A stretch of DNA of 64,000 nt from Escherichia coli (lineage in GTDB: Bacteria; Pseudomonadota; Gammaproteobacteria; Enterobacterales; Enterobacteriaceae): the NCBI RefSeq assembly GCF_041248615.1, contig NZ_CP158426.1; one strand, 5' to 3'. The notes beneath the pieces were generated by a model. That model saw nothing but the letters and a program-made list of their open reading frames with translations. It had not been told where the DNA came from and ran no database searches. Shown here piece after piece: positions 1,443-49,931 of the stretch. Numbering within the stretch: position 1 is the first letter of the stretch; the number at the start of each line of letters is the position of its first letter. A program made the position numbers and the translations under genes.

Positions 1443-1443
1443 A

Positions 1444-2727: not shown

Positions 2728-3262
2728 AGAATTTGATTTGGAATTTCTTAAATCTAGATTTTCTGATGCAGATTTCTATTTTTTTGTTTCTAATGATGAC
2801 TCATCTTATATTTCATGCGTAGCATGCTATTGTGAGAGCGCTAATTACGTGGTTGCGAATTGGACAGCGATTCAGAATTATTTATCTGCTTACTACCAAC
2901 CGAAGGATGAATTAGCTCTTTGGAATATATATTTAGTTTTCTTTTGTTCCGAAAAATTACCGATTTGGGATAAGTACCTTATAGATAATGATAAGTATTC
3001 TGTCAGAAAATTAATTATTGACGGGTTAACTACTCTGCCAAGTATTTCCGAAACTGTAACTTTTCTGAACAATCATCTGCTAGGCGCAGACCTAGAATTA
3101 ACTGAAATAGAGGAGAAGAAGGAGATAGAGTTATCATTAATTGAGTATATAAGTGGAACTCCTTTAGATTCAAAGGTTGAGTCGAGAGATGAGCGTATGA
3201 GCAGAATTGATAAAATTATTAATCTAGTGAGTTCAAATAAAAATGAAAATAAAAAAAGTTGA
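2711..3262 (+). CDS. small hypothetical protein, possibly the middle or adaptor component of the ATPase system
   Basis: 183-aa ORF overlapping both neighbours (17 nt and 20 nt), with an acidic, coiled C-terminus. No motif recognised by eye. Confidence 0.6.
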   Translation: MNLLNKEFDLEFLKSRFSDADFYFFVSNDDSSYISCVACYCESANYVVANWTAIQNYLSAYYQPKDELALWNIYLVFFCSEKLPIWDKYLIDNDKYSVRKLIIDGLTTLPSISETVTFLNNHLLGADLELTEIEEKKEIELSLIEYISGTPLDSKVESRDERMSRIDKIINLVSSNKNENKKS

Positions 3263-6200
3263 AATAGAAGGCTTTCGAGCATACAGATTCAAGGAAGATG
3301 GTACTTTCGATTTTACAAATAAAGATGATACGCCATCCAATTTTGTAGCGATCTATGCACCCAATGGCTTTGGAAAAAGTTCATTCTATGATGCGGTTGA
3401 ATGGGCTATTACTCATAATTTAGATAGATTTGCGGGTGAATATAATAAAAAAAATTATGAGCAAGCTGCCAGGAGCACGAAAGAGGACGGTGTTGCACAA
3501 AAAATACTACGTAATAAAGATGTACCAGACAATATTCCTACTCGTGTAACAGTTTTCACTACTTTACCAACTCCATTCGAACAAAGTTTAGGAACAGTTC
3601 GTTCTGATTCTAGAGATATAAGAATCGGCGAGAATAAAAATAAAATCAATGGCTATTTTAGAAAAGTGGTTCTTAGTCAAGATGAAATAGACCGTTTTTT
3701 AAAAGAAGCAAAGCCGCAAGATCGTTATAAGATGTTTATGGAGAGTTTTGGAGGTGAATGGGAAAAGGCGAGACAAGAGCTAACTATACTATTGAATGAC
3801 AATAAGGCGGTTTTGTTAAATCTCGAAAAAAACAAAAATGAACTTCAGGAACAACTAGATCAGCCTGTTGATGCGTCAACATTCATACAATTTAATAAAA
3901 TAGCATCTGAACTTGTAGCAGAAGGTGAAAGTTTACCATTAGTAGATGAAACAACTATAGTTAATACACAGCATGAGCTTTTGGAAAAAATAATCACAAG
4001 AAGTCACGAAATAAATTTTTCCTTAAACAAGAAAAAAATATTGAGAGATTCGATTTCTGAGTATATTTTAAAATTTCCTGATATCAGTTTTCGTACAACC
4101 CAGATTATCGAGAAAAAGAATAGACTAGAAAAAATAAATAAAGGGATAGAAGATGTCGGTCGTTATAAGACATTTCAGTCTACTCTTGAAAAACTGACTA
4201 TCGAAAAGAAAAAGATAAGTCAGAGCTTAAATTTTATAGAAGAATTAGATGGTTTATCCCAAGAGTTTTTAAGCTTGGAATTTAACTTGGAATCAGCTCG
4301 AAAGAAACATAGAGAGATTTCATATAATTATGAAAATGAAAAAACTCTCCTTGATAATTTATTCCAAACAAGAAACCAAAATGATGCTGATTTATCTTCA
4401 ATTGACAAGCGATGCTTATCTATACGTTCTACGTTAGAAAACGCTACGGTTACTTATTCTAATATATCTAATATACAAAATAAAATTTTAAATATAGTTT
4501 CTACGCAAACAGAATTAGAGCACAAACTTAATCAAGTTAGATCCGAATACCAAAAAAACAAATCCGAATTAAACAAAGTATCAGATTTAACAATAACCGC
4601 CAAATCATTACTTTCATCAGACTTAAGTCTAATTGATTTATCTTCAGATTTATTAAAAGAACTAAACAACTTATCGCAAGAACTAAATATATTGGTCCTA
4701 CATGATCAATCAATTCATAACACACAAGAATCTCTTTCTGCACAAATGGGAGTTCACGAACGTCTAATTGCATCGGGCCTTGAGTACTTAAGTTTATGGC
4801 CGACTAATATATGTCCTTTATGTCACAAGCCGCATGACTCTGAGTCCTCTCTTAGAGAACAAGTAACAAATACTGACGTAATATCCATGCTTAGTAAAGA
4901 GAATGCAGCTAAGCTCGAGATATCCTCAAAACGGCGGTCAGAGTTAAATGGCAAGATAGAATCCATCGTACAGAAAGCCCTTGAAATTAAAATGAGTAAA
5001 CTTGAGGTATTAAGTAAAAAGGTCAATCAACAAGGAAATGAGATACATCGAGAAGAACAGCACTATACAGCTCTTTTAGCAGAAAAACAGTCTGTCCAAA
5101 ATCAGTTAAACGAGTTGCAGAAGGCTGTAGCTGGACTAACTAAAGATGAATTATTAGCTCGCTTAGATGCTGAACTTAAAGAATTAGAGGCCAAGAAAAA
5201 TGAAGTGATAAAAAACAAGCTGACCTTGACGAAAAATATTAACGTTAAAAGAACGTTGATTACAGAGTTAAGTGGGGCGATCAATTTACTTAATACGCAA
5301 ATTCATGAAATGATGTCATCATCTAACTATTTAAAAACAAAAGCTTACTCTGAAGAAAATGGCTTGTCATCGGAGTTTTTGAAAGAACATTATGATGATA
5401 AACGCCATTTTTACCTTAAAAATATAAATGGACTCAATTTTGAGATTAATAATATTACCAGCCAATTAAATGATCTTCAGAAAGCTATGATAGCCGATGA
5501 AATGTGGCTGGATTATGAAGAAATGATTTCTGAAAAAGAGAATTTCGAGGATTATATTTCTAAATCAGAAGCGGTTTTACAATCTTATTCATCATTATTA
5601 AAGCAGCATTTTGAACTACCAAAATATGAATCTTTAGTTGAATTGAAAGATTTCCTGATAAGCTCACTTGATAAAGAAACTAGGCTTTATAATGGTCTAG
5701 AGGAACGGCTTGGAAAATATAATTTATTATCAGAACTTTTGAAAACAGCAGAGTCGTTTGTAAAAAGTATTAAGTTGCAGAATGATATTAATGAAACCTT
5801 AGGTCTTATAGAAATAAGAAAAGAAGTTGATTTAGCTCTGACTAAGGAACGAAATCAAGTAATAGAGGAACTTAGAAACTTGATAAAATCTTTCTTTTAT
5901 GAGGAACTCATTAATTCTATTTATAAGAGAATAGATCCACATCCATCACTTAAGAAAGTGGTGTTTCGCCCAGATTTTGACTCATCAGATAAACCTGGTC
6001 TTAATATAGTTGTCAGTGATGAAAAAGGTGATATGGTATCTCCAATATTATTCTTTAGTGCAGCGCAATTAAATATTCTAAGCCTTAGTGTCTTTTTAGC
6101 AAGTGCTTTGCATGCAAAAGATGATAATGGAAATGTAATTGATGTGATTATGATTGATGATCCAATTCAATCAATGGATTCAATTAATATCCTATCCACA

Positions 6201-6380
6201 ATTGATCTTCTTAGAAGTATTACCGTTAGATTCAACAAACAAATAATAATATCAACACATGACGACAATTTCTTTGGCTTGCTCCAACGTAAAATCCCTT
6301 CGGAAATATTGGGTGCCAAGTTTCTTAAATTGGAGAAATTTGGGGTTGTAGTGCCTGTTGATGATTTAAATAATACATGA
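3243..6380 (+). CDS. Rad50/SbcC/SMC-like ABC ATPase with a long coiled-coil insert and a central CxxC hook-like motif
   Basis: N-terminal beta-strand plus Walker A (IEGFRAY...YAPNGFGKSSFYDAVEWA). Q-loop-like LSQDE. About 700 aa of E/K/L/N-rich coiled coil. CPLC at residues 524-527 of 1045. C-terminal signature-like FFSAAQLNILSLS, Walker B VIMIDDP, D-loop SMD, H-loop ISTHD. Confidence 0.85.
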   Translation: MKIKKVEIEGFRAYRFKEDGTFDFTNKDDTPSNFVAIYAPNGFGKSSFYDAVEWAITHNLDRFAGEYNKKNYEQAARSTKEDGVAQKILRNKDVPDNIPTRVTVFTTLPTPFEQSLGTVRSDSRDIRIGENKNKINGYFRKVVLSQDEIDRFLKEAKPQDRYKMFMESFGGEWEKARQELTILLNDNKAVLLNLEKNKNELQEQLDQPVDASTFIQFNKIASELVAEGESLPLVDETTIVNTQHELLEKIITRSHEINFSLNKKKILRDSISEYILKFPDISFRTTQIIEKKNRLEKINKGIEDVGRYKTFQSTLEKLTIEKKKISQSLNFIEELDGLSQEFLSLEFNLESARKKHREISYNYENEKTLLDNLFQTRNQNDADLSSIDKRCLSIRSTLENATVTYSNISNIQNKILNIVSTQTELEHKLNQVRSEYQKNKSELNKVSDLTITAKSLLSSDLSLIDLSSDLLKELNNLSQELNILVLHDQSIHNTQESLSAQMGVHERLIASGLEYLSLWPTNICPLCHKPHDSESSLREQVTNTDVISMLSKENAAKLEISSKRRSELNGKIESIVQKALEIKMSKLEVLSKKVNQQGNEIHREEQHYTALLAEKQSVQNQLNELQKAVAGLTKDELLARLDAELKELEAKKNEVIKNKLTLTKNINVKRTLITELSGAINLLNTQIHEMMSSSNYLKTKAYSEENGLSSEFLKEHYDDKRHFYLKNINGLNFEINNITSQLNDLQKAMIADEMWLDYEEMISEKENFEDYISKSEAVLQSYSSLLKQHFELPKYESLVELKDFLISSLDKETRLYNGLEERLGKYNLLSELLKTAESFVKSIKLQNDINETLGLIEIRKEVDLALTKERNQVIEELRNLIKSFFYEELINSIYKRIDPHPSLKKVVFRPDFDSSDKPGLNIVVSDEKGDMVSPILFFSAAQLNILSLSVFLASALHAKDDNGNVIDVIMIDDPIQSMDSINILSTIDLLRSITVRFNKQIIISTHDDNFFGLLQRKIPSEILGAKFLKLEKFGVVVPVDDLNNT

Positions 6381-10710: not shown

Positions 10711-11592
10711 GTGGACTATCGGTATTTGCATGCATTTGTGGTGCTTGCCAGAGAACTGCATTTTGGAAAAGCCGCACTGCGGCTCAACATCACGCAGCCA
10801 GCCTTAAGCCGTCAGATTAGAGTGCTGGAAGATCAGCTTGGCATGGTGCTATTTACGCGTGATCGTCGTCATGTGGCGCTGACTGTGGAAGGAACTCAGC
10901 TTGCAGCGGAGGCGCGGAGCGCCGTCAGTCATTACGAAAAAATGCTGAGCCGTGCGAGTAGCCTTCGAAAAGGCTATAAAGGACAACTCATACTGGGTTA
11001 TGTCGGATCTTCCATTCTTGATCCCGCCCTGACACGGTTAATCACCTGTTTTCGCGAGACTAAACCGGATGTTGAGATTGTTATTGAGGAGCACAACGTT
11101 GACGAACAGCTCACCCTCCTGCTCGACCATCAACTGGATATGGGGCTGCTCCGATCGCCTGTTCCGCATTTTGCCAACCTGGACTACGTGGATATCGCCA
11201 CCAGGTCACTCATCGCCGCAGTACCGCACACGCATCCGCAGGCAGGAGTCGGTAAAATAGAGCTGGAGACGTTGTCCGGGGATACATTTATGATCCAGAA
11301 AGATCCGCCCGGGGTCGGGCTAGGCTGGTCTGCATTACATGCCTGTGAGATGGCCAGTTTTGTCCCACCCAAAATCTATTTTACTCGCGATGTTGCGGTG
11401 GCTATTGGCATGGTGTCGATGGGAATAGGAGTTACGCTGGTGCCAGAAACCCAGCGTTCTGTAACGTTGCCTAATGTCTGCTACTGCCTGCTGCACGATC
11501 CCGAGGTCACAACGACCTTAACGCTTTGCTGGCCGAAATTCAGGAAAAGCAGGGAATTGATAGAGTTTGTACGCTCTTTAACGCTTGGTTGA
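10711..11592 (+). CDS. LysR-family transcriptional regulator, divergent from the decarboxylase operon
   Basis: N-terminal HTH YRYLHAFVVLARELHFGKAALRLNITQPALSRQIRVLE plus a LysR substrate-binding domain. GTG at 10711 gives the canonical MDYRYL start; the tracked ORF starts at TTG 10699. Confidence 0.9.
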   Translation: MDYRYLHAFVVLARELHFGKAALRLNITQPALSRQIRVLEDQLGMVLFTRDRRHVALTVEGTQLAAEARSAVSHYEKMLSRASSLRKGYKGQLILGYVGSSILDPALTRLITCFRETKPDVEIVIEEHNVDEQLTLLLDHQLDMGLLRSPVPHFANLDYVDIATRSLIAAVPHTHPQAGVGKIELETLSGDTFMIQKDPPGVGLGWSALHACEMASFVPPKIYFTRDVAVAIGMVSMGIGVTLVPETQRSVTLPNVCYCLLHDPEVTTTLTLCWPKFRKSRELIEFVRSLTLG

Positions 11593-11703
11593 ATCTTAAG
11601 AAGCTGCAGTTGAGTCATAGCCAGCGATCAAAATTGAGAAGACAAAACCGGGGAGAGGTGCCCGCAGTTTCTGCCCCAGCTCCCATCTTCAGGAAGATGT
11701 GTT

Positions 11704-11907
11704 TCAGGAATGCATTCGTGATGCTGGGGATAGCGGCAAGACGATTTTCTCATCGGGTAACTCTGCGGTATCGGAACAGTTGACGACGGCAGGGTGGTGA
11801 ATGGGAACCTCAGGATGAAGCGCTCGGGCAAGAGGGATGGACTGTGCTGAAGAGAACACTGACAGAACGAGCATGATGCTTGCAAAAAGGGGACTCTGGA
11901 TATTCAT
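11704..11907 (-). CDS. small secreted hypothetical protein
   Basis: 67-aa ORF with AGGAG upstream of the ATG and a signal-peptide-like N-terminus (LVLSVFSSAQS). Confidence 0.45.
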   Translation of the reverse strand: MNIQSPLFASIMLVLSVFSSAQSIPLARALHPEVPIHHPAVVNCSDTAELPDEKIVLPLSPASRMHS

Positions 11908-12133
11908 TGTTTATCTCCTGATGATATTCATCGCTCCAGAGAATACGCTTGCCACTCTTTTTATTTGTTTTCCTGAATTAAAAATGCCCGGTTTTATGTG
12001 GTTCTTCCGTAAACGTTATTACATTAATTAACATCTAGTTTCTATCTCCGAAATGAGGTAAAAAAATAATTGTCGTGGTTTTTATCAAACAAATTTACCG
12101 GCAGCTCAGATCCGAACTAATACCTGGAAATTC

Positions 12134-12182
12134 AAACCCCAAACCCCAAACCCCAAACCCCAAACACCAAACCCCAAACACC
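12134..12182. repeat. heptanucleotide tandem repeat: (AAACCCC)x5 plus (AAACACC)x2
   Basis: Read directly: units at 12134, 12141, 12148, 12155, 12162 (variant), 12169 and 12176 (variant). The complement is GGGGTTT, a G-quadruplex-type run. Confidence 0.95.
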
Positions 12183-12412
12183 ATTTCACCGCTGGCGTGT
12201 AAGGGGCTCTATATCTGTTTATTCAGGGATAGTTTTTTCTCCCGTGTGATTTCCGTTCATGTATCTGCTTCCGGTTAATCGTTTCCCAGCACAACCCGTC
12301 CCGCAAGGGTAAATGGCACGCCTGCTGCGCCCTTGCGGGATGGAACGATGCCGGGAAAGCGAACCGTCAGGCGATACGAAGACGAAAATCACACCACTGA
12401 CGGAGAAAAAAA

Positions 12413-13357
12413 ATGACTATGTCCCTGCATACCAAGATAAGTGCCCCTAACACGACAGCGGCGACCAGCGTATCCTCGCTGGATCTGTCAGGCTCCTCAA
12501 AAACGAAATGTTCAACAGCCAGAACCGATATTTATCAGACTGTTACCGACAGCATAATTGCGGCGCTGGAAACCGGAGTAAAACCTTGGGTGTGTCCTTG
12601 GCAGCGAGCTCCCGGTATGTCCGGTTTACCGTCCAATTACGCCACTGGTAAGGCTTACAGCGGAATGAATATCATGTTGCTTTGGTGCAGCGCGTCAAAA
12701 CAGGGATTCTGTGATTCACGCTGGATGACCTACAAACAGGCAAAAGCGGTAGGTGGGCAGGTGCGCAAGGGAGAACACGGCACTACCGCGATTTTCTATA
12801 CCACGCTGGAAAAGGAAAATGATAACGGAGAAACTGACTATATTCCTATGCTGAAAGCATTCACTGTGTTTAATGTTGAACAAATTGACGGTTTACTCCT
12901 GAGTGATGATGCCGTTTTTCCGGCAGAGATCTTTGAGCCATTACCACGTGCAGAAGCACTTTTTCGTAGTAGCGGTGCAACCATTATTGAAAAAGGACAG
13001 AATGCTTTTTTTACACCATCAACCGACGAAATTCGCTTACCTGAACGGTATCTTTTTATTGATGCTGCTAATTTCTACGCAACCGGCCTGCATGAGCTCG
13101 TTCACTGGAGTGGGGCAAAAAGTCGGCTGAACCGTGAAATGAAAGGGAAATTTGGCAGCGAGGGGTATGCGTTTGAAGAGTTGATCGCTGAGCTGGGGAG
13201 CGCATTCCTGATGGCGGATCTGGGGATAGTTGGAGAAGTTCTGCATGACAGTTATATCGCTTCCTGGCTTAAAGCACTGAGGAATGATAAACGCTATATT
13301 TTCAAGGCCGCCAGCGCGGCATCGAAAGCACATCGCTATTTGATGGATAAAAGCTGA
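12413..13357 (+). CDS. ardC: ArdC-type antirestriction protein (N-terminal ssDNA-binding domain plus zincin metalloprotease)
   Basis: N-terminal YQTVTDSIIAALETGVKPWVCPW and GMN..LL motifs of the ArdC N-domain. C-terminal HELVHW zinc-metalloprotease motif. 314 aa. Confidence 0.85.
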   Translation: MTMSLHTKISAPNTTAATSVSSLDLSGSSKTKCSTARTDIYQTVTDSIIAALETGVKPWVCPWQRAPGMSGLPSNYATGKAYSGMNIMLLWCSASKQGFCDSRWMTYKQAKAVGGQVRKGEHGTTAIFYTTLEKENDNGETDYIPMLKAFTVFNVEQIDGLLLSDDAVFPAEIFEPLPRAEALFRSSGATIIEKGQNAFFTPSTDEIRLPERYLFIDAANFYATGLHELVHWSGAKSRLNREMKGKFGSEGYAFEELIAELGSAFLMADLGIVGEVLHDSYIASWLKALRNDKRYIFKAASAASKAHRYLMDKS

Positions 13358-13365
13358 GTAGCAAA

Positions 13366-13387
13366 AAGCCGCAAAGGAATGCGGCTT
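13366..13387 (+). terminator. possible terminator hairpin after ardC
   Basis: AAGCCGCA / TGCGGCTT 8-bp stem with a 6-nt loop, 9 nt after the stop. There is no strong T-tract. Confidence 0.4.
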
Positions 13388-13479
13388 AATGGGCTGGGGG
13401 TACTAAACCAGTAAAGGTTTAGTCAGTAATATTAGTGAAGCAGAGCAAGTATCGAACAGTCATATTCCTGTAGTGGTAT

Positions 13480-13918
13480 TAAGACAACCTTAAGAAGGGA
13501 CTGATGTATAGCTACTCTTGTATACCCATCCATGGAAAATTCGGTTGTATTGCCGGGTTGATATGTGCAGGTTGGTCCCGACCCAAGAAGTTTTTACTGT
13601 GAAAATTGTCAAACTATATCAATGTGGTAACAGCTTCTCTTGTCCCTTTGGTTATTTCAAATTGGACCGGGCTATCTGTTGCAACACGGTTGCTCTGCTT
13701 GAAACAGAGTTAACATATGCAACATCAGATACTTTGAGTTTGATCAGATCATAGCCTCGTAGCTTACTGTCCAAGGTCATATTGAACAGAGTTAAATCGC
13801 GCATTTTACCTTCCATTTCAAGCCTGATTCGGATCCCCCCTGATATGAGATATCTGAAGTGGTCTTTTTGGTCAGTGATACTTACAATACGGTCTTTGTC
13901 CCACGGTGACGTGTTCAT
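13480..13918 (-). pseudogene. decayed tyrosine recombinase (small-integrase family) gene
   Basis: MNTSPWDKDR...DLTLFNMTLDSKLRGYDLIKLKVSDV matches the N-terminal half of small enterobacterial integrases. After ...RATVLQQ the frame breaks. A shifted frame continues PVQFEITKGTREAVTTLI, then a stop. Confidence 0.6.
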
Positions 13919-14200
13919 ACTCAAAGCTCCTGTAATGTTGGAGATTTGAGCATGGTTATCCCTCATGAGCGAGGAACGGACAATGTCCCTTGCGCGATCC
14001 AAGATTGATTTTTCTTATTAAATTAAGCTATGGCTGACCTACGAACGATAGGCAAAATGCTCCTAAAGCTACGGCTTATGACAGTAAAAAACATATTGAT
14101 AAAAATCTGAGCTGGTTTAGAATGCTATAATGGAATAATTATTTATTTTCGGCCTTCAGTTTGATCATTTTTAGAAATCACCCTTTTGAAGGAATCTACA

Positions 14201-14995
14201 ATGGAATCAGAAGAAACGAAAGAAGAGAGTTATCAACAGCGTTCGGAGTTTATCAGAAAAATAATTCAACAGCCTGTTGAGGGTGTCATATCTTCATGCA
14301 CTATACCAAAAAAAATAATTCAATTTTGGGATTCATCCAATACTATCCCTAATGATGTCAGACATTGCATGAAATCATGGCGTATCTTAGAACCTTTTGG
14401 GTATGAGTATTTACTATATGATTTCGTTAGCGCCCAAGAATTTATTAAACATAATTTGGGTGAAACATACAGTGAAGCTTTTGCCAAGTGTACTCATCCT
14501 GCTATGCAATCAGATTATTTCCGATTATGTTATATCTCGGTAAACGGGGGATTTTATGTTGACACTGATGATGTTTATCTGGGTAGTGAGATAAGTAGTT
14601 TTTTCACGGATGATAAGTTAAAAATACAACCTTTATGCTACGATATTTCCACCGATTCTATGATTCCACCAGAAATTTTTACAAAGGAAAATACTTATGA
14701 AGAATCTTGGATTTTTTATTTCAACAACAACCCGTTAATTGCTCCGCCTCATCATGTTATCATTGATAAGGCACTAGAGCAATCCACATACTTACTTAAT
14801 AAATCAAGCTATCCTCTCACAGATATTCAGTCAACAACTGGTCCTGGTAATCTATCTAAATCTATTTTCTCGTGTCGCGAGGAAATAGATTTATTATCCC
14901 AGATTACGGTAGTATCAAACTGGCAAGATATTGCAGAAACTAAGTGGGATTTAGAATACAGAGCTGATTCTAGAAATTGGCGCTTGATGAATTAA
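14201..14995 (+). CDS. DXD-motif glycosyltransferase (Gly_transf_sug / Och1-like sugar-binding region)
   Basis: IPKKIIQFWDS..IP, QSDYFRLCYISVNGGFYVDTDDVY (DxD). AAGGA lies 7 nt upstream of the ATG at 14201. Low GC. Confidence 0.75.
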   Translation: MESEETKEESYQQRSEFIRKIIQQPVEGVISSCTIPKKIIQFWDSSNTIPNDVRHCMKSWRILEPFGYEYLLYDFVSAQEFIKHNLGETYSEAFAKCTHPAMQSDYFRLCYISVNGGFYVDTDDVYLGSEISSFFTDDKLKIQPLCYDISTDSMIPPEIFTKENTYEESWIFYFNNNPLIAPPHHVIIDKALEQSTYLLNKSSYPLTDIQSTTGPGNLSKSIFSCREEIDLLSQITVVSNWQDIAETKWDLEYRADSRNWRLMN

Positions 14996-15010
14996 CATGG
15001 ATTTTTAATA

Positions 15011-17212
15011 ATGAACATTAAAAATAATTTGAAAGGTATTAGCCGTTTTTTTTATTCTTTTTACTTACGCTCTCGGTTACTTCTCCCAGCGCAAAAATCA
15101 TCGACCTTTAATACATTAAATCAGAATGAAGGCGTTATTAGCAGGATTTACGCTATAAACTTAGAACGGGAAGCGATTAGATGGGCAGATTTAAATAAAG
15201 AACTGGGTAAAATACTAGATAAATCTAATAAAAAATTAACGAGCCAATTAACCAGATTCTCTGCTATAAACGCCAAAGAAATGTCAGACATTCTCAATGA
15301 GGAAGAGGTTATTCCTTATTATACTTTAGCAGACCAGTTGTACGTTGACCCTCAACCAAAAATCTTACCCGATAAATTTGATCTCGATGTCCCTATAAAA
15401 ATGAGTAAAGCGGAAATTGCTGTAGCATTATCGCATCTAAATGTTATTAGGCTTGTTGCAGAAGGTTCTGATGCATATGCTTTAGTGCTTGAGGATGACG
15501 TGTATTTTGAAAGAGATTTTGCCAAAACCTTAGATGCTGCTTGGTCTGAAATGATTCAAGCTGACAGATCTTCACCTGGTTTTGATATCTTATATTTGTC
15601 ATTTAAAGAGGTTATGAATGGCGCGAAAAAGAAAATTATTTCGAAAAGCATATTTAAACCAGAGCGAGGGTTATGGTATTTTTCAGGATATGTATTATCT
15701 AAGAAAGGAGCAAATAAAATCCTCTCACTCCTCCCAACTTATGGACCAATTGACTTATGGATAAATCATCAATTTGAGAAACTCGATGTGAGGGCAGTAT
15801 ATAAGTCGATCATTTCTCAGAGGTTGGATTTTAACTCTTCAAATTCCTATTCAATATTACCTACCTTAGTGAAGATTGGTATTATTGACAATGAAAAAGC
15901 TTCCAGTTTTAATGAACTTCCAAATTATTGGCCTGTTTTTGCATTTGGTGTAAGTGGTTCGGGTATTTCTTCTTTGGGTATGGCACTATCAATGCTTGGC
16001 TATAAGTGTTGTAGTGATATTGATAGACTTCCCAATGCAGACTTAAAAAATCTATTAAGTAATTCAGAGCAGAATGAATTCAATGCTTATGTAAATGTTG
16101 GCTGTCTCAGTAAGTATATCGGCATATTAAAAAAACAATATCCAAAAGCAAAATTTATAATTACCACGAGTGAATCAAAAGAAATCGAAGATGTTATTTT
16201 TAATATAATTGAGGAGATCGTTGATACTGACTATGTTGTATTGCATTCAGATGAAAAAAACAAATGGAAGGTTATATGTGAATACCTTCAATGCCCACCA
16301 CCTATTTCAGCGTACCCAGAAATGGCTGACATTATTCCTAGGCAGATTATAGATATCACCAGTGCAGCACAAATCAATAATTCAGAAATTAACATGATAC
16401 ATGACATTTCCCCTTGGATATTAGAAAGAAAGAATTTTTCAGGAAATGGTTTTTTTATAAAAGATAATCCGAAGAGAATTGAAAAAGAGCTTGCTGATTT
16501 CTTCATTAATGATTCACTACAAAATATTAATAATAACTATTGGGAAATTCGCGATGATACTTTCCCTGGAAATCTTGGACTGTTTCGACCTCAAAATGTG
16601 ATTCAAAATGATATTAGTGGTTTAGGTCTTGTAGTTAAGGAGGAACAGTTAGGCGTTAGAGAGTTTAGTGCTGCTGCGATTTCAAGTAGAATGAAGTTCC
16701 TATATGGCCGATTTGAAGTGTCCCTACGAGCGGCAAATGTTGCAGGGATAGTAACCGGCTTCTTTTTACATAGAGATTCGCCTCGTCAAGAAATCGATAT
16801 TGAGTTTGTTGGAAATCGATCTGATCATATGTTGATCAATGTTTTTTATAATCCTGGTGATGAAGGTGCAAAGTTTGATTATGGATATCGTGGTACACCA
16901 ACTCTTATTCCTTTAGGTTTTGATGCTTCTGAAGAGTTTCATGATTACATGATTGAATGGAGTCCTGATGAGATAAAATGGTTTGTGGATGGAGTTATGG
17001 TTTATCGTAGAGGAGTTTGGGGGCCTACACCTATACCTCATTTACCCATGACCCTTCATGCTAACACTTGGCCAACCCGTTCCAAGGAACTGGCGGGACG
17101 TCTCCACACGCGTTCCTTACCCTGTATCACTTATATTAGGAAAATATGTATTGATGCAACAATGGATGTTAATAATCCAAAATTAAATGACCAGACAGTA
17201 GTGGCTGGTTAA
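15011..17212 (+). CDS. three-domain enzyme: GT25-like glycosyltransferase, then a P-loop (sulfotransferase-like) region, then a GH16 domain
   Basis: N-terminal IYAINLERE...EIAVALSH..LVLEDDV resembles the GT25 family. Middle region GVSGSGISSLGMAL is a P-loop-like motif. The C-terminus has the canonical GH16 catalytic motif EIDIEFVG and a ConA-like fold pattern. No signal peptide was seen. Confidence 0.7.
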   Translation: MNIKNNLKGISRFFYSFYLRSRLLLPAQKSSTFNTLNQNEGVISRIYAINLEREAIRWADLNKELGKILDKSNKKLTSQLTRFSAINAKEMSDILNEEEVIPYYTLADQLYVDPQPKILPDKFDLDVPIKMSKAEIAVALSHLNVIRLVAEGSDAYALVLEDDVYFERDFAKTLDAAWSEMIQADRSSPGFDILYLSFKEVMNGAKKKIISKSIFKPERGLWYFSGYVLSKKGANKILSLLPTYGPIDLWINHQFEKLDVRAVYKSIISQRLDFNSSNSYSILPTLVKIGIIDNEKASSFNELPNYWPVFAFGVSGSGISSLGMALSMLGYKCCSDIDRLPNADLKNLLSNSEQNEFNAYVNVGCLSKYIGILKKQYPKAKFIITTSESKEIEDVIFNIIEEIVDTDYVVLHSDEKNKWKVICEYLQCPPPISAYPEMADIIPRQIIDITSAAQINNSEINMIHDISPWILERKNFSGNGFFIKDNPKRIEKELADFFINDSLQNINNNYWEIRDDTFPGNLGLFRPQNVIQNDISGLGLVVKEEQLGVREFSAAAISSRMKFLYGRFEVSLRAANVAGIVTGFFLHRDSPRQEIDIEFVGNRSDHMLINVFYNPGDEGAKFDYGYRGTPTLIPLGFDASEEFHDYMIEWSPDEIKWFVDGVMVYRRGVWGPTPIPHLPMTLHANTWPTRSKELAGRLHTRSLPCITYIRKICIDATMDVNNPKLNDQTVVAG

Positions 17213-17383
17213 TCATTAGAGTGAAAAGTAAATATTAGTAAGGCACTGGTAAAAATGTAGACACTATCAGTGCCTTAGTAGTTATCCCTCTGGATGGTTT
17301 TTTGACAATAATTTCCGTTTCTGGCACGGAACGGACAGAAAGCAGGGCCACCAAATCTCTCACGAGCCAAAAACCTAAATTAT

Positions 17384-17427
17384 GATCTGACAGATACATG
17401 TATCAATGAAACTGTCGCTGTCAGATC
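17384..17427 (-). terminator. possible terminator hairpin downstream of the hchA paralog
   Basis: Perfect 10-bp inverted repeat GATCTGACAG/CTGTCAGATC with a 24-nt loop, about 65 nt after the stop. It is followed on the minus strand by a T-rich tract. Confidence 0.4.
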
Positions 17428-17490
17428 AATTACGCCTTACTATCTGAAAATTATTTGATTTTCTGCATCGTGCATTCAAATTAACAATGT

Positions 17491-18342
17491 TCAGGAGGCA
17501 TAAACTGAAAGGAGTTCTTTAGCTGCCAATTGACCAAGTGCGTTGGCTGCAAAAGGACTGTCACCTGTCAGTACCTTACGATCTTTGTATACGCTTCCTT
17601 TAATATCATCATTAACAATATTCATCCCCATTTGCTTAAGTGCATCGCCAAAATACCATGTGAGATGGCCCGGCATATAACCAATGTCAGGCGTCTGCTT
17701 ATCAGCTGAATCAGGGAAAGCGCAAATAGAATACTCTTTTAGAGGGTTTTCACCATTGCGCAGCGAAAGGAATGCTGCTGGGCCATGGCAAAGGGATATG
17801 ACGAAGCGGTCATTGTCCATGAACCAGCGAAGAGTATCGGCTACTGCGCTGCTTTCTGGCAGCCCAATCAGTGCGCCGTGGCCACCAGGAATAAACACGG
17901 CAGCATATTCACTTTGCTTGTTCAGGCTATTCAATACATCAGACAATTTTTCAGGATTTTGGAACTTGTCTCTATACCGGCTGAAAAATGGCATAACTTT
18001 CTCATCCTTGTGCGGCATGGCCCAGTATTCGAACTTTGTCATGTAACCTGAGATTGTCGCAATGTCAAAATCAAAACCAGCAGCATGCAGGTGATACATT
18101 GGAATAAGCGTTTCAACAGGATGGTTTCCCGTTGAGAACAGAGCCCCGCTATCAGTCATCAGGTAACGCTCATCCGCAGCGATGACCAGCACCTTCTTCC
18201 CTCCCATGCACTGTTTGGGATAGTCGTAGTCACTAAGGTCAGATACGGGGCTGGTAAACTGACTAAGGGAATAGTCAGAGGGGAAAAATGCGTTTTCTTC
18301 AGCATGATCCACTTTCGGATGTTTACTTTTATCATTTGTCAT
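17491..18342 (-). CDS. hchA: Hsp31/HchA-family glyoxalase III / protein deglycase (DJ-1/PfpI), a diverged paralog
   Basis: 283 aa from the internal ATG at 18342 (MTNDKSKHPKVDHAEENAFFPSDYSLSQ...). It is collinear with E. coli HchA as I recall it, including the ISLCHGPAA nucleophile elbow, but clearly diverged. The tracked ORF's 54 extra N-terminal codons run into IS2. Confidence 0.9.
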   Translation of the reverse strand: MTNDKSKHPKVDHAEENAFFPSDYSLSQFTSPVSDLSDYDYPKQCMGGKKVLVIAADERYLMTDSGALFSTGNHPVETLIPMYHLHAAGFDFDIATISGYMTKFEYWAMPHKDEKVMPFFSRYRDKFQNPEKLSDVLNSLNKQSEYAAVFIPGGHGALIGLPESSAVADTLRWFMDNDRFVISLCHGPAAFLSLRNGENPLKEYSICAFPDSADKQTPDIGYMPGHLTWYFGDALKQMGMNIVNDDIKGSVYKDRKVLTGDSPFAANALGQLAAKELLSVYAS

Positions 18343-18514
18343 TACGTATTCCTCGTTGATTGGTGTTAACTCTCTTTCTCGGGCCTGAATTCGCCTGTTA
18401 TATGGGCGACCAGGATAGCCTGATAGACTGGCCCCATGAATCTCCAGACAACCAATATCACTTAAATAAGTGATAGTCTTAATACTAGTTTTTAGACTAG
18501 TCATTGGAGAGCAG

Positions 18515-18880
18515 ATGATTGATGTCTTAGGACCGGAGAAACGCAGACGGCGTACTACACAGGAAAAGATCGCTATTGTTCAGCAGAGTTTTGAACCGGG
18601 AATGAAGGTCTCCCTTGTTGCCCGGCAACACGGTGTGGCAGCCAGCCAGTTATTTCTCTGGCGCAAGCAATACCAGGAGGGAAGTCTTACTGCTGTGGCC
18701 GCAGGAGAGCAGGTCGTTCCTGCCTCTGAACTTGCTGCTGCCATGAAGCAGATTAAAGAACTCCAGCGCCTGCTCGGCAAAAAAACGATGGAAAATGAAC
18801 TCCTTAAAGAAGCCGTTGAATACGGGCGTGCAAAAAAGTGGATAGCGCACGCGCCCTTATTGCCCGGGGATGGGGAGTAA
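18515..18880 (+). CDS. insC: IS2 transposase OrfA (InsC)
   Basis: 121 aa: [29 protein letters not shown]... matches IS2 InsC. Confidence 0.9.
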
Positions 18881-19743
18881 GCTTAGTCAGCCGTTGTCTC
18901 CGGGTGTCGCGTGCGCAGTTGCACGTAATTCTCAGACGAACCGATGACTGGAAAGATGGTCGCCGCAGCCGTCACTCAGATGATACGGATGTGCTTCTCC
19001 GTATACACCATGTTATCGGAGAGCTGCCCACGTATGGTTATCGTCGGGTATGGGCGCTGCTTCGCAGACAGGCCGAACTTGATGGTACGCCTGCGATCAA
19101 TGCCAAACGTGTTTACCGGATCATGCGCCAGAATGCGCTGTTGCTTGAGCGAAAAACCGCTGTACCGCCATCGAAACGGGCACATACTGGCAAAGTGGCC
19201 GTGAAAGAAAGCAATCAACGATGGTGCTCTGACGGGTTCGAGTTCCGCTGTGATAACGGAGAAAAACTGCGAGTCACGTTCGCGCTGGACTGCTGTGACC
19301 GTGAGGCACTGCACTGGGCAGTCACTACGGGCGGCTTCGACAGTGAAACAGTACAGGACGTCATGCTGGGAGCGGTGGAACGCCGCTTCGGCAACGAGCT
19401 TCCGGCGTCTCCAGTAGAGTGGCTGACGGATAATGGTTCATGCTACCGGGCTAATGAAACACGGCAGTTTGCCCGGATATTGGGGCTTGAACCGAAGAAC
19501 ACGGCGGTGCGGAGTCCGGAGAGTAACGGCATAGCAGAGAGCTTCGTGAAAACGATAAAGCGTGACTACATCAGTATCATGCCTAAACCAGACGGGTTAA
19601 CGGCAGCAAAGAACCTTGCAGAGGCGTTCGAGCATTATAACGAATGGCATCCGCATAGTGCACTGGGTTATCGCTCGCCACGGGAATATCTGCGGCAGCA
19701 GGCCAGTAATGGGTTAAGTGATAACAGGTGTCTGGAAATATAG
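18838..19743 (+). CDS. insD: IS2 transposase OrfB (InsD). The active enzyme is made as an InsCD fusion by -1 frameshift.
   Basis: 301 aa with the DDE/rve-domain pattern of IS2 InsD. It overlaps insC in the -1 frame. Confidence 0.9.
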
Positions 19744-19759
19744 GGGCAAATCCACCTGA

Positions 19760-19917
19760 GTAGTGGTAGTCTCTTCCATACGGTTGCGTACGTATCTCAG
19801 GTGGTTTGCTACAGCATGCGGAGATAGTCCCAGTAAACCAAGAACCACTTTAGCTTTTGATGACTCATACCCCCAATCTGAACACTCCTTTAATACCCAT
19901 ATTGCCGAATACAGGAA
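19760..19917 (-). pseudogene. remnant of a LuxR/GerE-type HTH ORF split by IS2 (its distal 58 nt lie at 18366-18423)
   Basis: With IS2 and one TSD copy removed, the minus strand reads 71 open codons ending ...LGLSPHAVANHLRYVRNRMEETTTTQAILVAHITGEFRPEKES*. This is a GerE-type recognition-helix pattern. There is no in-frame start codon. Confidence 0.3.
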
Positions 19918-20342
19918 TCATAATGTCGTGCAAAATACCACTAACAAAATTATGACAATTTAATAACTTTGAACGTGGCTTTGTGTTCCAGTTTTATGCC
20001 AGGAGAAATCATTCGATATCTTTATAAAATATCGTTCTAACTGTAAGTAATTAATATGATTTTTCTCATAAAAAAACTTAAAATCAGTTAACTTCAGCCC
20101 GGAATATGCGTTCACTGAGCGGCCTCTTCATGAACGAAACCGAGAAAAAATAGGCTACAGTCACAACCACACTGTAGAGCAACTTCTCTCACGTGCTGTT
20201 TCAGAGAATAGATCTTCTTGCATCTGAAGAATGGTATCCAGAGCTATCCTGATCACCCCTGAATGCAATAGTTGCGTATACTAGGCGCATGACAGAATCA
20301 TAAAATGAGAGCTATCCCTTATTATCATGACTTCAGTAAAAT

Positions 20343-21098
20343 TTAAATTTGCATTGAGGTAGCGATATCGAGACGTTGCAGTTCGTCAATCGTGTAGATG
20401 CGGAACACATTCCTGTGGCGGGTTTCCAGTGGGATGTGTTGATGATTCACGATGACGTACTGGATGCTGTCAAACAGCCGTTCAAGACCGAGTTTTTTTT
20501 GCGGGTCTGGCACAATATAAAAAACGTAGATCCAGTCTTTACGCGTTCGGGCCAGTAAATGACTGGCTATGATCGACTGGTAACGGGCTTTGGTTTTCAG
20601 ATGGCGCTCGGTCTCGATGGCGATCACCGTGCCGCTGGGGAGGGCAATTAGCCCGTCCGGGCGGTGACTGACCTGATAACGACTCAGGAAAGTTGTGCGA
20701 TCGCCATGTATCCAGCCGCATGCGCCTTTTTTTTCGAGGATGATCCGCGCCATCTGATTATCAAGGTGATGTTCCAGCGTCCAGCCTGTGAGTTTTGAAG
20801 GCTCAAACCGGGCCGGGAAAATTTCATCATCAGGCTGTATTACGACCGCCAGCCCGTCGTTGGTTATTCCCCACAATGAAATTTTCTTCGTACGTGATAC
20901 CAGGACGTGTTTTTGTATTAACCCCATTCCCTCAACTTTTGAAAGCAGGGAATACAGTGATTTATGATCCCTGAAGCCGAACAGCAGCATCAGTGTTGTA
21001 AAATCACTGTACGTTTCTTCTTTCAGGAAATTCAGCAGTCGTATTATCTTCTCGCGATGTCGGGTCTGGCGCTCGCGGTATGCGGTGATAAGCATCAT
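20343..21098 (-). CDS. mobC: MobC-like protein: winged-helix plus PD-(D/E)xK nuclease fold (MOBC-family relaxase candidate, CloDF13 MobC-like)
   Basis: 251 aa. N-terminal wHTH-like segment (IIRLLNFLKEE...LLSKVEGMGLIQKH). C-terminal RPDGLI...VIAIETERHLKTK fits a D..E.E/K nuclease motif. It sits immediately downstream of the coupling protein. Confidence 0.55.
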   Translation of the reverse strand: MMLITAYRERQTRHREKIIRLLNFLKEETYSDFTTLMLLFGFRDHKSLYSLLSKVEGMGLIQKHVLVSRTKKISLWGITNDGLAVVIQPDDEIFPARFEPSKLTGWTLEHHLDNQMARIILEKKGACGWIHGDRTTFLSRYQVSHRPDGLIALPSGTVIAIETERHLKTKARYQSIIASHLLARTRKDWIYVFYIVPDPQKKLGLERLFDSIQYVIVNHQHIPLETRHRNVFRIYTIDELQRLDIATSMQI

Positions 21099-21106
21099 TT
21101 CCCCTT

Positions 21107-23032
21107 CTAAAAGTTCAGTAACGAGGGATGATCCTCTTTACCTGCACCTGCACCTGCACCTGCACCTGCACTTGTTGTTGTGTGTTTCTCGTCCGGCTTG
21201 TCAAAAAAGAGATCGGGTTGTGTTGTCGTGATAACTGATGTTGATGACGGTCCGGATGACATTTCTTCCTCGTCAAAATTCAGGGCAATGTTGACTCTTG
21301 CGGCGGTGGCGGCAACAGCGGGCGATACGGCACAGATCGCCAGTTCCCTTTTTTTAACCCTGATGGGAGAAATTAGTGAAGCAGAGGGGAGGGCTTTGGT
21401 GGTGAATATAAAACTGACAAAATCAGGCAGGTTCAGCACCATATTACTGTCGATAAAGAAACGCTCGGCCTGCCTGATGGTGCGTTCACTATCGATAGTC
21501 TCTGTCAGCACCGCATCTGTTTTGGCTTTGCGGACTTCGTCATCGACTAATATGGTGCCTGACATTCTTGCCACCCAGTCAGCGGTATCAGGGTCCATGA
21601 CACGATAAACCAGCTTGAATTTGGCATTCTCCACAACTGCACCCACCACGGCATCGCTTTTCAAATCCGCCGGGCAATCTTTTAAATCGGCAATGGATTG
21701 GTGGTCCATAATAATGTGTACACCTTTATCCCGTGCCGCACCTAAGCCTTCCAGCGCAGGCTTGGATAAATGGTATTTCAGTTCGGAAAGGTAAATAGCA
21801 ATAGGGCGGGGTGTGTGGTTTACCCGATCGCGCCTTTCTGCCAGCTGGTACAGGCGAACCAGCAGCATGCGCTGAGCGGTAATAATTTTGCTGTTGCGCA
21901 TCGAGCCAATCACATAGCAGCAACCACCGTTATCAAATATTGTATTGAGGGAAAATCCTGCCGGTGCATTGATGGCATTGAGTAAGGCCAGCTCCTCAAT
22001 TTTCCCGAAAAAGGCTTTTATCTTATCAGCGATACTTTGGACGTATTCCCCGTTATACACATCCCGAATGGTTGAGGTCGTATTACGGGCGACAAATTGT
22101 GCAGCTATTCGGGCTGCTTTGCGATCGTCAATGCGATAAAAGTCAGACTCTTGTCCTTTCTCTGCCAGACTGAAACCCGCGACAAAAAGTTCTTCCAGTT
22201 CATCAGCGGTGATATCGTTAATCAGGTTTAGCTGGTATGCCTGTTTCCTCAGGTCAATTAGGGCAAAGGATTTCCCTGCATCCTCGCAGGCTTTCCGGTA
22301 AAGGTGTGGGGCCCACTCATCATCTTTGGGGTCCATAACAAATACGCCTTCACCGGCCAAAATACTCTGATAAAGTAATATCCCGGTGGCCACCCCTTTA
22401 CCGGCCCCCGTGGTCCCGATGATATCGGCATGTTGTTTTTGCCAGTCTTTTAACGGCAGGTACATCGGCTGTTTCATTCTGTTCATGCCGATAAAAATAC
22501 CTTTACTCAGGTTAATATAATCCTCCGGGTTATAGTGCAATGTTTCCGGTAGCAGCGATTTCACCGTTCGGACATCAGTACGTAATTCCCTTTCCAGAGT
22601 GGTTTTTCTGACGAACCGACTTTTTACTTTATCGAGTTCAGGTGTTAACACCCTGCGCAGAAGAATATGGAAAACAAAACCGGCTGCGGTAGAGGTAATC
22701 AGTATCAGCCAGGAGAGGACAGTATTGCTGGTGGCTATCTTTATTCGGTATATCCATTGAAATAATTCGTTCACCACGGGCGCTATTGTGCCAAACAAAA
22801 AGCACAGTATGGAAAAAACTATCACCAGCTTTTTCCATAAAGGGGCTTTGAGTCGTTCATCGCTTTTCATCGACGCGAAGAATGGCATGGTCAGCCCTGA
22901 GAATAGCGCCAAAATAGGTTGATGCTGGTGCATAAAAACGAGCAGTCCCAGCATGCCGTCCACTATCGGTGATAGTGAAACGATCAGCTTATTTAACACC
23001 ATAATGCTTCCTTTATCGGCCATTCGCCCCAC
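21107..23032 (-). CDS. mobB: type IV coupling protein (TraD/VirD4/CloDF13 MobB-like T4CP)
   Basis: N-terminal TM segments. Walker A IIGTTGAGKGV, Walker B-like VFVMDPKDDE, and a TraD/TraG C-terminal pattern. 641 aa. Confidence 0.9.
   Translation of the reverse strand: MGRMADKGSIMVLNKLIVSLSPIVDGMLGLLVFMHQHQPILALFSGLTMPFFASMKSDERLKAPLWKKLVIVFSILCFLFGTIAPVVNELFQWIYRIKIATSNTVLSWLILITSTAAGFVFHILLRRVLTPELDKVKSRFVRKTTLERELRTDVRTVKSLLPETLHYNPEDYINLSKGIFIGMNRMKQPMYLPLKDWQKQHADIIGTTGAGKGVATGILLYQSILAGEGVFVMDPKDDEWAPHLYRKACEDAGKSFALIDLRKQAYQLNLINDITADELEELFVAGFSLAEKGQESDFYRIDDRKAARIAAQFVARNTTSTIRDVYNGEYVQSIADKIKAFFGKIEELALLNAINAPAGFSLNTIFDNGGCCYVIGSMRNSKIITAQRMLLVRLYQLAERRDRVNHTPRPIAIYLSELKYHLSKPALEGLGAARDKGVHIIMDHQSIADLKDCPADLKSDAVVGAVVENAKFKLVYRVMDPDTADWVARMSGTILVDDEVRKAKTDAVLTETIDSERTIRQAERFFIDSNMVLNLPDFVSFIFTTKALPSASLISPIRVKKRELAICAVSPAVAATAARVNIALNFDEEEMSSGPSSTSVITTTQPDLFFDKPDEKHTTTSAGAGAGAGAGKEDHPSLLNF
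21140..21170. repeat. in-frame hexanucleotide repeat (ACCTGC)x5 encoding (Ala-Gly)5 in the T4CP C-terminal tail
   Basis: Read directly. It corresponds to SAGAGAGAGAGK, 11 residues before the stop. Confidence 0.9.
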
Positions 23033-23700
23033 GACATCGCCCCCTCAATTCGCCCCACGGTGTTGGGCGAAAAGCTGGGGTGAAAGCAGGGGCAAACAGA
23101 GGTGGCTGCGGTGCAGCCATGTGCCGGTAGATAGACTTTCCGGCCCGAAACGACGTGCACCAGTTCATGCGGGCTGGACGCCCTTATTGCCTGGCGCATG
23201 GGGGTAATGGCGTGGCTGTACGCCGCGCCAAAACCCCCAGGGTCAACGGCGGCACACCGTCGCCCGCTACGCGCGACCAACCCCTTTAAGACGCGCGTTT
23301 CGCCTGTTTTTTTCTCGCAAGCTCCAAAAAACGGGAACGCTGCTTTAAAGGGGTTGGTCGCGCCTGATTGGTAATATCCCCGCTGGGGCGGGAAATATTA
23401 CCTGGCTTGACGGTGTGCGGGGCAAGCCCCCCACAAAAAACGGCACGTGGGCGTGCCTTTTTGCTCGCTGGGGCGGCAAAATTTTTGCGGCTCCCCCGGC
23501 CTGCTTAATTCGCTGTGGGCGAATGTGCGCAGATGGATGCGGTACCTGAAAATTAACAATTTCTGCGAAATTGAATTTTCTGTCCGCGTTCCACTGGCTT
23601 ATTTCACGGCTTAACAATTTCTCCGAAATTGAAGCCAGAAATTAGCCAGCCTCAACCCCGCCGTCTGTCAGTCTGTGGCGCTGTGAGGCATAGTGTAATG
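23033..23700. other. non-coding repeat-rich region, candidate oriT / relaxosome assembly site
   Basis: 668 bp with no credible CDS, lying between mobB and the virB11-side operon. 19-bp perfect inverted repeat (23271-23289 / 23345-23363). TTCGCCCCACG direct repeats (about 23022 and 23047). Two 23-bp direct repeats (23553-23575 / 23611-23633, 22 of 23 identical). Several short GC hairpins. Confidence 0.5.
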
Positions 23701-23709
23701 TCCGGTGGT

Positions 23710-49855: not shown

Positions 49856-49931
49856 TGGCTCCTCTGACTGGACTCGAACCAGTGACATACGGATTAACAG
49901 TCCGCCGTTCTACCGACTGAACTACAGAGGA
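49856..49931 (-). tRNA. asnT: tRNA-Asn (GUU)
   Basis: The reverse complement reads TCCTCTGTAGTTCAGTCGGTAGAACGGCGGACTGTTAATCCGTATGTCACTGGTTCGAGTCCAGTCAGAGGAGCCA, which is the E. coli tRNA-Asn sequence. The asnT name is inferred from adjacency to mtfA. Confidence 0.95.

Follow-up and report, generated by a model that had tools for sequence, protein, structure and literature searches.

A tandem heptanucleotide array stands just upstream of ardC, a gene for an anti-restriction protein, in an integrative conjugative element (ICE) of Escherichia coli NRZ14408. We analyzed it in a 64-kb stretch of the NRZ14408 chromosome (hereafter the window) and in related genomes, plasmids and metagenomes, and found that its unit number varies between strains with identical flanks and that it lies exactly between the conserved ICE backbone and variable cargo. 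The array is very probably a slippage-driven hypervariable simple sequence repeat (SSR), that is, a variable-number tandem repeat (VNTR), seeded by a conserved C-rich motif at the edge of the backbone. For the explanation as a whole, a slippage-driven microsatellite whose likeliest effect would be to insulate ardC, we estimate a probability of roughly 0.55.

Sequence and Unit Number of the Array

The array occupies positions 12134..12182 of the window (plus strand) and reads (AAACCCC)4-AAACACC-AAACCCC-AAACACC; the minus strand is (GGGGTTT)n. Tandem Repeats Finder detected it with a period of 7, 7.3 copies and a score of 88, which places it among the two top-scoring arrays of the window. The double-unit 14-mer AAACCCCAAACCCC, searched with up to one mismatch, gave six matches, all within the array, compared with 0.02 expected from shuffles. 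The minus strand carries exactly four consecutive GGGG runs with TTT loops, and a fifth run is located past the interrupted unit. This is the sole canonical G-quadruplex (G4) motif (four runs of at least three Gs, loops of 1–7) when both strands of the 64 kb are considered, and ViennaRNA with the G4 option predicted a quadruplex at the array. An earlier note, made from the letters of this stretch, had described seven units, a textbook G4 motif on the minus strand and a distance of 230 bp from the array end to the ardC ATG (12413); the description is correct in every detail. The 67-aa open reading frame (ORF) that spans the array (12075-12278) was said there merely to translate the repeat, and it does indeed exist only mechanically.

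The comparison of unit number among related genomes that had been suggested gave a positive result, with 3 to 30 units. In complete chromosomes we counted 7 units in NRZ14408, 12 in 2018-06-4CC (two records), 20 in YF-1 and 12 in A38 (flanks 95% identical), all of them E. coli, and 30 in Klebsiella sp. I138, which carries the same cargo at 96% identity. Further assemblies, reached by exact-protein look-ups of the flanking genes, had 3, 4, 7, 8, and 14 units with several interruption patterns; counts from short-read or metagenome assemblies may be wrong, and the complete genomes alone give 7, 12, 20, 12, and 30. Contigs from short reads and from a k=31 assembly break within the array, which explains the short-read assembly breaks just upstream of ardC.

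Flanks were compared over 2 × 1,400 bp (2,800 bp) around the array. No flank differences were found between 2018-06-4CC (L002) and YF-1 (L003), yet the two carry 12 and 20 units, respectively. The loci L016, L022, and L026 likewise had zero flank differences, yet 8, 3, and 4 units. The window and L010, again without a flank difference, have the unit orders PPPPaPa and PPPPPPa (P, AAACCCC; a, AAACACC). The variable portion is the pure 5′ part of the array, and the 3′ aPa tail is common to the window, 2018-06-4CC and YF-1. These data show that unit number shifts far faster than point mutations accumulate in the flanks, mostly in the pure 5′ part, as expected for the slipped-strand type of hypervariable tract that the earlier note had supposed. 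Alleles differ by 7-bp units, which are not multiples of 3 bp, and thus no reading frame is conserved across the array. A coding or frame-shifting repeat was rejected, as only the mechanical 67-aa ORF covers the array and differences in unit number break any frame.

Position at the Backbone/Cargo Boundary

Distant relatives (∼270 E. coli genomes and many Klebsiella and other plasmids; ∼79% identical) align with the window only from 12170-12183 rightward. To the right of the array is a 230-bp non-coding block, starting with ATTTCACCGCTG, that is common to all distant relatives; to the left is lineage-specific cargo. The array therefore stands at a module junction, as had been proposed. A metagenome scan with a 20-nt block motif, invariant in the six lineages in hand, returned 69 loci, which together with the earlier loci fell into 41 distinct left-flank classes. 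Among these classes, tandem arrays directly abut the block in five independent lineages, with four unit sequences: AAACCCC in the window lineage (3–30 copies) and in Pectobacterium jejuense (L082; at least 10–11 copies, running off the contig end), AAATCCC in L179 (7 copies), AACCCCC in L197 (10 copies) and the hexamer AAACCC in L206 (5 copies). The four other array lineages stand at the same distance from the window as array-free lineages do (block 88–89% nt identity, ArdC 80–88% aa identity), and their cargo is unrelated to that of the window where a left flank is available. Proto-arrays of about two units, e.g., CCCAAACCCCAAACCC and AACCCCCAAACC, are present in further lineages, and by our reading ∼26 of the 41 classes have at least one AACCC-type motif that abuts the block. 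The sequence comparison thus points to the C-rich unit as the outermost conserved element of the backbone block, which would either have expanded repeatedly or have persisted with concerted change of the unit.

Most lineages of this family are array-free. Among complete E. coli genomes the array was found in only four strains, all of the element lineage of the window, and of the 274 E. coli genomes with this ardC family ∼270 lack an array yet retain the leader. In lineages L007, L151, and L153 the junction falls at the same nucleotide in the absence of any C-rich motif. Since array-free lineages share the junction nucleotide, the array does not create the junction, and the recombination hot spot that had been envisaged here was not borne out. 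The backbone motif had no match in the viral collection. We also considered a 7-nt periodicity as a sign of ancient degenerate arrays: lags 6 and 7 were significant (z ∼4) in the array-free junctions, but this set still held proto-arrays of 2–5 units and the result was not used.

The left flank AGCTCAGATCCGAACTAATACCTGGAAATTC (12103..12133, plus strand) is semi-conserved in several otherwise unrelated cargo contexts, being common to L150, L179, L180, L199, L201, and L209. It forms a degenerate inverted repeat (AGTTCAG-GT-CTGAACT in L180), and its terminal AAATTC resembles a decayed repeat unit. A tRNA-derived attachment remnant at the array was rejected, as ARAGORN found none in five loci. Further to the left, in the lineage-specific cargo, an unannotated 67-aa ORF on the minus strand (11704..11907) starts 226 bp from the array and is divergent from ardC. 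It has a signal-peptide-like N-terminus, a strong Shine-Dalgarno (SD) sequence and no Pfam match, and it is intact in all variants of the window's element lineage (94–98% aa identity).

The ardC Leader Hairpin

The first 50 nt of the conserved block (12183..12232, plus strand) contain a small hairpin (12209-12217/12224-12232) that abuts a T-run. An intrinsic terminator at the T-run was rejected, since a scan found none and the small-hairpin folds of the individual lineages were modest (median z ∼−1). Fold analyses, and the conservation of the structure, favour a reading of the T-run as the 5′ arm of a long hairpin. This imperfect hairpin of ∼180 nt (12233..12411, plus strand) extends from the T-run at 12233 to an A-run at 12411 and holds the invariant motif CTTCCGGTTAATCGTTTCCC. 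In the predicted fold TTTTTTCTCC (12233-12242) pairs with GGAGAAAAAA (12402-12411); the SD of ardC, GGAG, is located at 12402-12405 and is therefore predicted to be sequestered.

The block folds at −97.3 kcal/mol (z −6.3) as RNA and at −50.6 kcal/mol (z −5.9) as minus-strand single-stranded DNA (ssDNA), and in each case none of 200 shuffles folded as well. Over 59 distinct sequences, 90.6% of the pair cells were canonical compared with 37–48% after the 3′ partners had been slid by 1–3 columns, the former figure being somewhat inflated because the structure was derived from the window sequence. Seven hairpin pairs were altered on both sides in this set, and the SD was fully paired in all 59 independent folds. 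The loci with the hairpin block include the window, L006-L008, L082, and L150-L218. The 3′ two-thirds of the block are nearly invariant and more conserved than ArdC, which is only ∼80% identical across the ICE/plasmid family; this near-invariance made the RNAalifold consensus covariation of the leader uninformative. An Rfam E-value search of 11500-13500 gave chance-level eukaryotic matches only, with no family for the hairpin.

Promoter searches were negative. A sigma-70 consensus scan of 11550-12500 found no sites, and a relaxed −35/−10 scan of the block gave a best score of 7/12, with none conserved at 8/12 or above. The copy-number-dependent promoter spacer suggested by the earlier note is not supported, as no −35/−10-like hexamers flank or span the array and the ardC control block lies wholly downstream and is kept in array-free lineages. 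Predicted SD sequestration was unchanged for 0–30 units. Since array-free lineages also keep the leader hairpin, the ardC control module is self-contained and operates, by whatever mechanism, in the many lineages that lack an array. The hairpin may be a translational lock at the RNA level or, alternatively, an unconventional ssDNA promoter.

Two rearrangements of the block were noticed. In the metagenomic loci L159, L170, and L176 it is interrupted at one and the same point, CCCGCAAG|CAACTGTGTTATAGGG, within the inner stem of the hairpin ∼45 nt after CTTCCGGTTAATCGTTTCCC, and this shared point hints at a mobile element with the hairpin as its target. In L211 there are two block copies ∼2.7 kb apart, the first of them truncated.

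Host Element and Gene Context

The window is a 100% match to the NRZ14408 chromosome, which carries at tRNA-Asn (49856-49931, integrase adjoining) an ICE with a VirB-type type IV secretion system. It is of the ICEKp1/HPI-ECOR31/pMET1 type with a CloDF13-like module made up of the origin of transfer (oriT), mobB and mobC. The mobB-type coupling protein and the MobC "replication-relaxation" protein are encoded at ∼20343-23002. The ardC gene (12413..13357, plus strand) encodes an ArdC-family anti-restriction protein of 314 aa with matches to Pfam ArdcN and MPTase-PolyVal (PGAP name, ArdC family protein). The 3′ end of tRNA-Asn occurs only once in the window, a second copy as direct repeat being absent from it, and thus the distal ICE end lies beyond the window and the array well inside the element. 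The oriT of the CloDF13-like module has been placed upstream of mobB (PMC2262945, PMC6761156), which corresponds to window positions ∼23003-23709, ∼11 kb from the array. An intergenic perfect 19-nt inverted repeat, GCGCGACCAACCCCTTTAA (23271-23289/23345-23363), precedes the coupling-protein gene and corresponds to the "IR2" said to bear the nic sites of the CloDF13-like oriT. The GCGCGACCAACCCCTTTAA arm is invariant in most relatives, and a variant arm, GACCACCCCCTTTAAG, defines a second oriT type.

The cargo left of ardC includes a LysR regulator, UbiD/UbiX, an ABC-three-component (ABC-3C) defence system and others; at 390-6380 a ComEC/Rec2-family gene is followed by the ABC-3C system and a large AAA ATPase. 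The corresponding site in relatives holds different defence systems (restriction-modification, other ABC-3C types), which makes the region left of ardC a defence-island hot spot. On the other side, ∼7 kb (13517-20100) are inserted between ardC and mobC, which directly adjoin in relatives; the insert contains an integrase pseudogene, GT32 and GH16/GT25 glycosyl-enzyme genes, hchA and an IS3 element. A perfect (ACCTGC)5.3 hexamer repeat at 21140-21171, in the 3′ end of the mobB-type coupling-protein gene, encodes an in-frame dipeptide repeat and is possibly another length-variable tract. In the neighbouring lambdoid prophage, adjoining iteron-like arrays of TGTCACGACA (five copies) and ACAGATAAAGAT (four copies) at 58299-58394 lie in a hypothetical gene and may be a phage replication origin inside a replication gene.

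The term "telomere-like" used in the earlier note describes a resemblance only. The array is internal, at ∼2.096 Mb of the 5.34-Mb chromosome, with unique sequence on both sides, and a telomere was rejected because the array is not at the end of a linear replicon. Matches to (AAACCCC)4 in the genome collection were mostly terminal, inverted arrays on short contigs of metagenome-assembled genomes (MAGs). Among the loci L030-L149 there are many "bacterial/archaeal" MAG contigs of 1–5 kb with C4A3 arrays at both ends in inverted orientation. We read these contigs as telomere-capped eukaryotic (ciliate-type) mini-chromosomes mis-binned into species-representative MAGs, e.g., MAGs from horse faeces; such arrays have no bearing on the one before ardC.

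Origin and Possible Effect of the Array

We propose that a short C-rich motif (AACCCC) at the outermost 5′ edge of the ardC control region grew into arrays by slipped-strand mispairing. A neutral origin is the single most likely account of the array. It would be neither an on/off switch nor needed for ardC control, and the drift in its length would be largely a by-product of repetitiveness. That the array has any selected function is somewhat less probable than that it has none, and the largest share of this chance falls to an insulator role. If selected, the array would most likely act as a graded insulator that shields ardC from transcription entering from the variable cargo. Rho loads on C-rich, G-poor unstructured RNA (rut sites, ∼70–80 nt). 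The plus-strand transcript of the array would be a G-free, C-rich and unstructured RNA suited to Rho loading, and the template strand of rightward transcription would be the quadruplex-forming strand; either effect would grow with unit number. Among 127,844 78-nt segments from both strands, the array region had the largest C-minus-G excess. In predicted read-through RNAs the array had a P(unpaired) of 0.83–0.96 for alleles of at least 7 units. Upstream cargo genes are often oriented towards ardC (LysR in the window and L008, a transposase in L007), and the small hairpin, whose sequence varies by lineage, is weaker in the window and the other array-bearing lineages than in the array-free ones. 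Composition, gene orientation and small-hairpin strength are no more than suggestive of an insulator.

Several points weigh against this explanation. An insulator role presupposes transcription through the array, which is itself hypothetical, and the window allele of 49 nt is shorter than typical rut sites. The difference in small-hairpin strength (−9.3 to −15.4 kcal/mol in the five array-bearing lineages vs. a median of −17.7 kcal/mol in 48 array-free sequences; Mann-Whitney one-sided p = 0.002) is a post hoc association from five lineages only, with non-independent comparison sequences. With respect to slippage, the 7-unit allele is kept in all of five noisy assemblies that, with near-identical contig sizes and consecutive accessions, appear to represent a single strain lineage, and match length is equal for both 2018-06-4CC records; the rate is thus not extreme over few laboratory passages. 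Recurrence at one site in at least five lineages, together with pure arrays of 12–30 units, could mean selection for the array, which would favour regulatory rivals over drift.

Chief among these rivals is a contingency-type regulator, in which the number of repeats would adjust ardC transcription, or the fate of its mRNA, by degrees and selection would maintain the array because variable ArdC levels help the ICE across the restriction systems of its hosts. We regard this as unlikely. It would account for an intergenic 7-nt SSR of hypervariable unit number in front of a host/element conflict gene, for the recurrence of arrays, built from four unit types, at one position in five or more diverged lineages, and for the long conserved hairpin just downstream; the hmw loci offer a precedent, in that a transcribed heptamer SSR acts via a long hairpin in the 5′ untranslated region (PMC12721329). 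However, most lineages of the family, and ∼270 of the 274 E. coli genomes, are array-free with the same leader. The array is predicted to be unpaired with the leader, the predicted sequestration of the SD is independent of unit number, no promoter was found upstream of or across the array, and the five assemblies of apparently one strain lineage show no variation. It seems to us equally doubtful that the array is a selected, length-variable "dial" on anti-restriction, retained beside the ardC control module in several ICE lineages, which would set the duration or strength of ardC expression on host entry via quadruplexes of the G-rich strand or a Rho-recruiting C-rich transcript. On the whole, it is improbable that the array modulates ardC expression with any consequence for the element.

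A role during the single-stranded phase of conjugation is less probable by far. The transferred strand (T-strand) would be the minus strand (the ardC template) and the long hairpin an ssDNA promoter, and (GGGGTTT)n quadruplexes would stall complementary-strand synthesis from the cargo side and prolong the single-stranded state, and with it early ardC expression, according to unit number. The only G4 motif in 64 kb, the retention of G-runs of at least 3 in all four unit types and an adjoining conserved hairpin that is stable as ssDNA (z −5.9) agree with such a role. Leading-region anti-defence genes are T-strand-encoded, often behind Frpo-type hairpin promoters (PMC11541004), and ardC, which is opposite to (convergent with) mobB/mobC and adjacent to them in relatives, would, if transfer starts at oriT and proceeds into mobB-mobC, belong to the leading region and have the T-strand as its template. 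The oriT reportedly has nic sites in both inverted-repeat arms, so either strand might be transferred (PMC2262945). On the other hand, the hairpin lacks conserved −35/−10 boxes (best 7/12), the defining feature of Frpo; with the mob genes entering last, ardC would arrive late and the C-rich repeat would be on the transferred strand; in the window ∼7 kb of inserted cargo separate ardC from mobC; and most lineages are array-free. About as improbable are protein-binding iterons, in which the heptads would form an operator or centromere-like array bound cooperatively by a small ICE DNA-binding protein, comparable to Reg576 or to the heptad-binding omega of pSM19035. The layout of p576 (heptamer direct repeats, promoter, stem-loop leader, ardC; PMC6294495), the use of AAATCCC in one lineage (L179) and the C-rich unit kept at the block edge in most lineages favour such binding. 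Against it, single heptamers occur at about chance frequency elsewhere in the 64 kb and paired ones not at all, and a p576-type multi-operator set was rejected on the latter ground. Moreover, the unit changes from lineage to lineage (AAACCCC, AAATCCC, AACCCCC, AAACCC) although the remaining backbone has 88–89% identity, 3–30 spacerless head-to-tail copies are unlike known operators, and no adjoining promoter was found. Least likely, and by our estimate very remote, is a recombination or secondary-nick site at which the C-rich motif is a pseudo-nic or break-prone sequence that makes the junction, the repeats being scars of repeated processing. The array is exactly at the junction, and the oriT arm GCGCGACCAACCCCTTTAA shares CCAACCCC-TTT with the junction consensus CCAACCCC(A/T)TTTCACC. 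This core is only a 7-mer plus a T-run (chance probability ∼0.1, a rough estimate), the junction has no corresponding change in lineages with the other oriT arm (GACCACCCCCTTTAAG), lineages devoid of the C-rich motif, such as L007, L151, and L153, have their junction at the very same nucleotide, and the mapped oriT is upstream of mobB. The position of the family oriT, ∼11 kb off, and the absence of covariation between oriT arm and junction also speak against the transfer pause site, in the oriT sense, that had been listed among the possible roles.

Three features still set the slippage-driven repeat apart from routine cases: it has a fixed place on the border of a control module for anti-restriction, arrays of different units recur there in several lineages from three genera, and it is the sole G4 motif of the region. 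We found no description of the repeat or of the conserved ardC leader hairpin in the available literature, and none in Rfam. If the array is a mere by-product, it is still a fast-evolving marker for following this ICE lineage between E. coli and Klebsiella. If it is functional, it would link hypermutable simple repeats to the timing of anti-defence expression in conjugation, two fields that have hardly been joined, and the natural allele series of 3 to 30 units could serve to study G-quadruplex or Rho effects in a native bacterial context. To our knowledge, SSR-based contingency loci are uncommon in Enterobacterales, and the dial, if true, would be a hypermutable anti-defence controller in this order. 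Independently of the array, a deeply conserved hairpin of ∼180 nt, predicted to hide the ribosome-binding site of ardC, is present in a widespread ICE/plasmid family.

Comparison With Known Systems

Ciliate-type telomeric repeats include G4T4 and G4T2. The array resembles them in the G4T3/C4A3 composition of its unit and in G-quadruplex potential, and differs in being internal to a bacterial chromosome, with only 3–30 units and no DNA end.

The (ATCTTTC)n repeats of hmw1A and hmw2A in Haemophilus influenzae are transcribed, form the left arm of a 5′ leader hairpin and always number at least 11 (PMC12721329). Both systems have an intergenic 7-nt SSR of variable copy number before a conflict-related gene and a long leader hairpin; however, the ardC array lies 50 nt outside its hairpin, is predicted to be unpaired with it and is absent from most relatives. 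The repressor Reg576 of plasmid p576 binds TTATCCC heptamers located before ardC576 and at three other promoters; two heptamers, with 2 bp between them, adjoin a clear sigma-A promoter, and all four promoters bear this motif (PMC6294495). C-rich heptamer direct repeats before ardC with leader stem-loops, at an establishment gene of a conjugative element, are common to both. Unlike the Reg576 operators, the array consists of 3–30 contiguous units that vary between lineages, with no adjoining promoter found and no other sites in the window. The neighbouring hairpin, rather than the array, is like the Frpo/ssi ssDNA promoters (PMC11541004) in being long, stable, imperfect and directly before an anti-defence gene of a conjugative element. 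It is unlike them in having no conserved −35/−10/UP boxes, and it also would hide the SD, which fits an RNA-level role equally well.

Bacterial VNTR/SSR loci include the 6–7-bp loci used in multiple-locus VNTR analysis (MLVA) of E. coli O157. The ardC array shares with VNTR/MLVA loci its short head-to-tail units, changes by whole units among nearly identical genomes, variation of pure tracts beside interrupted units that stay constant, and breaks in short-read assemblies. It departs from them in that it belongs to an ICE and has one fixed place in a conserved regulatory block, at which different units have expanded in several lineages and genera.

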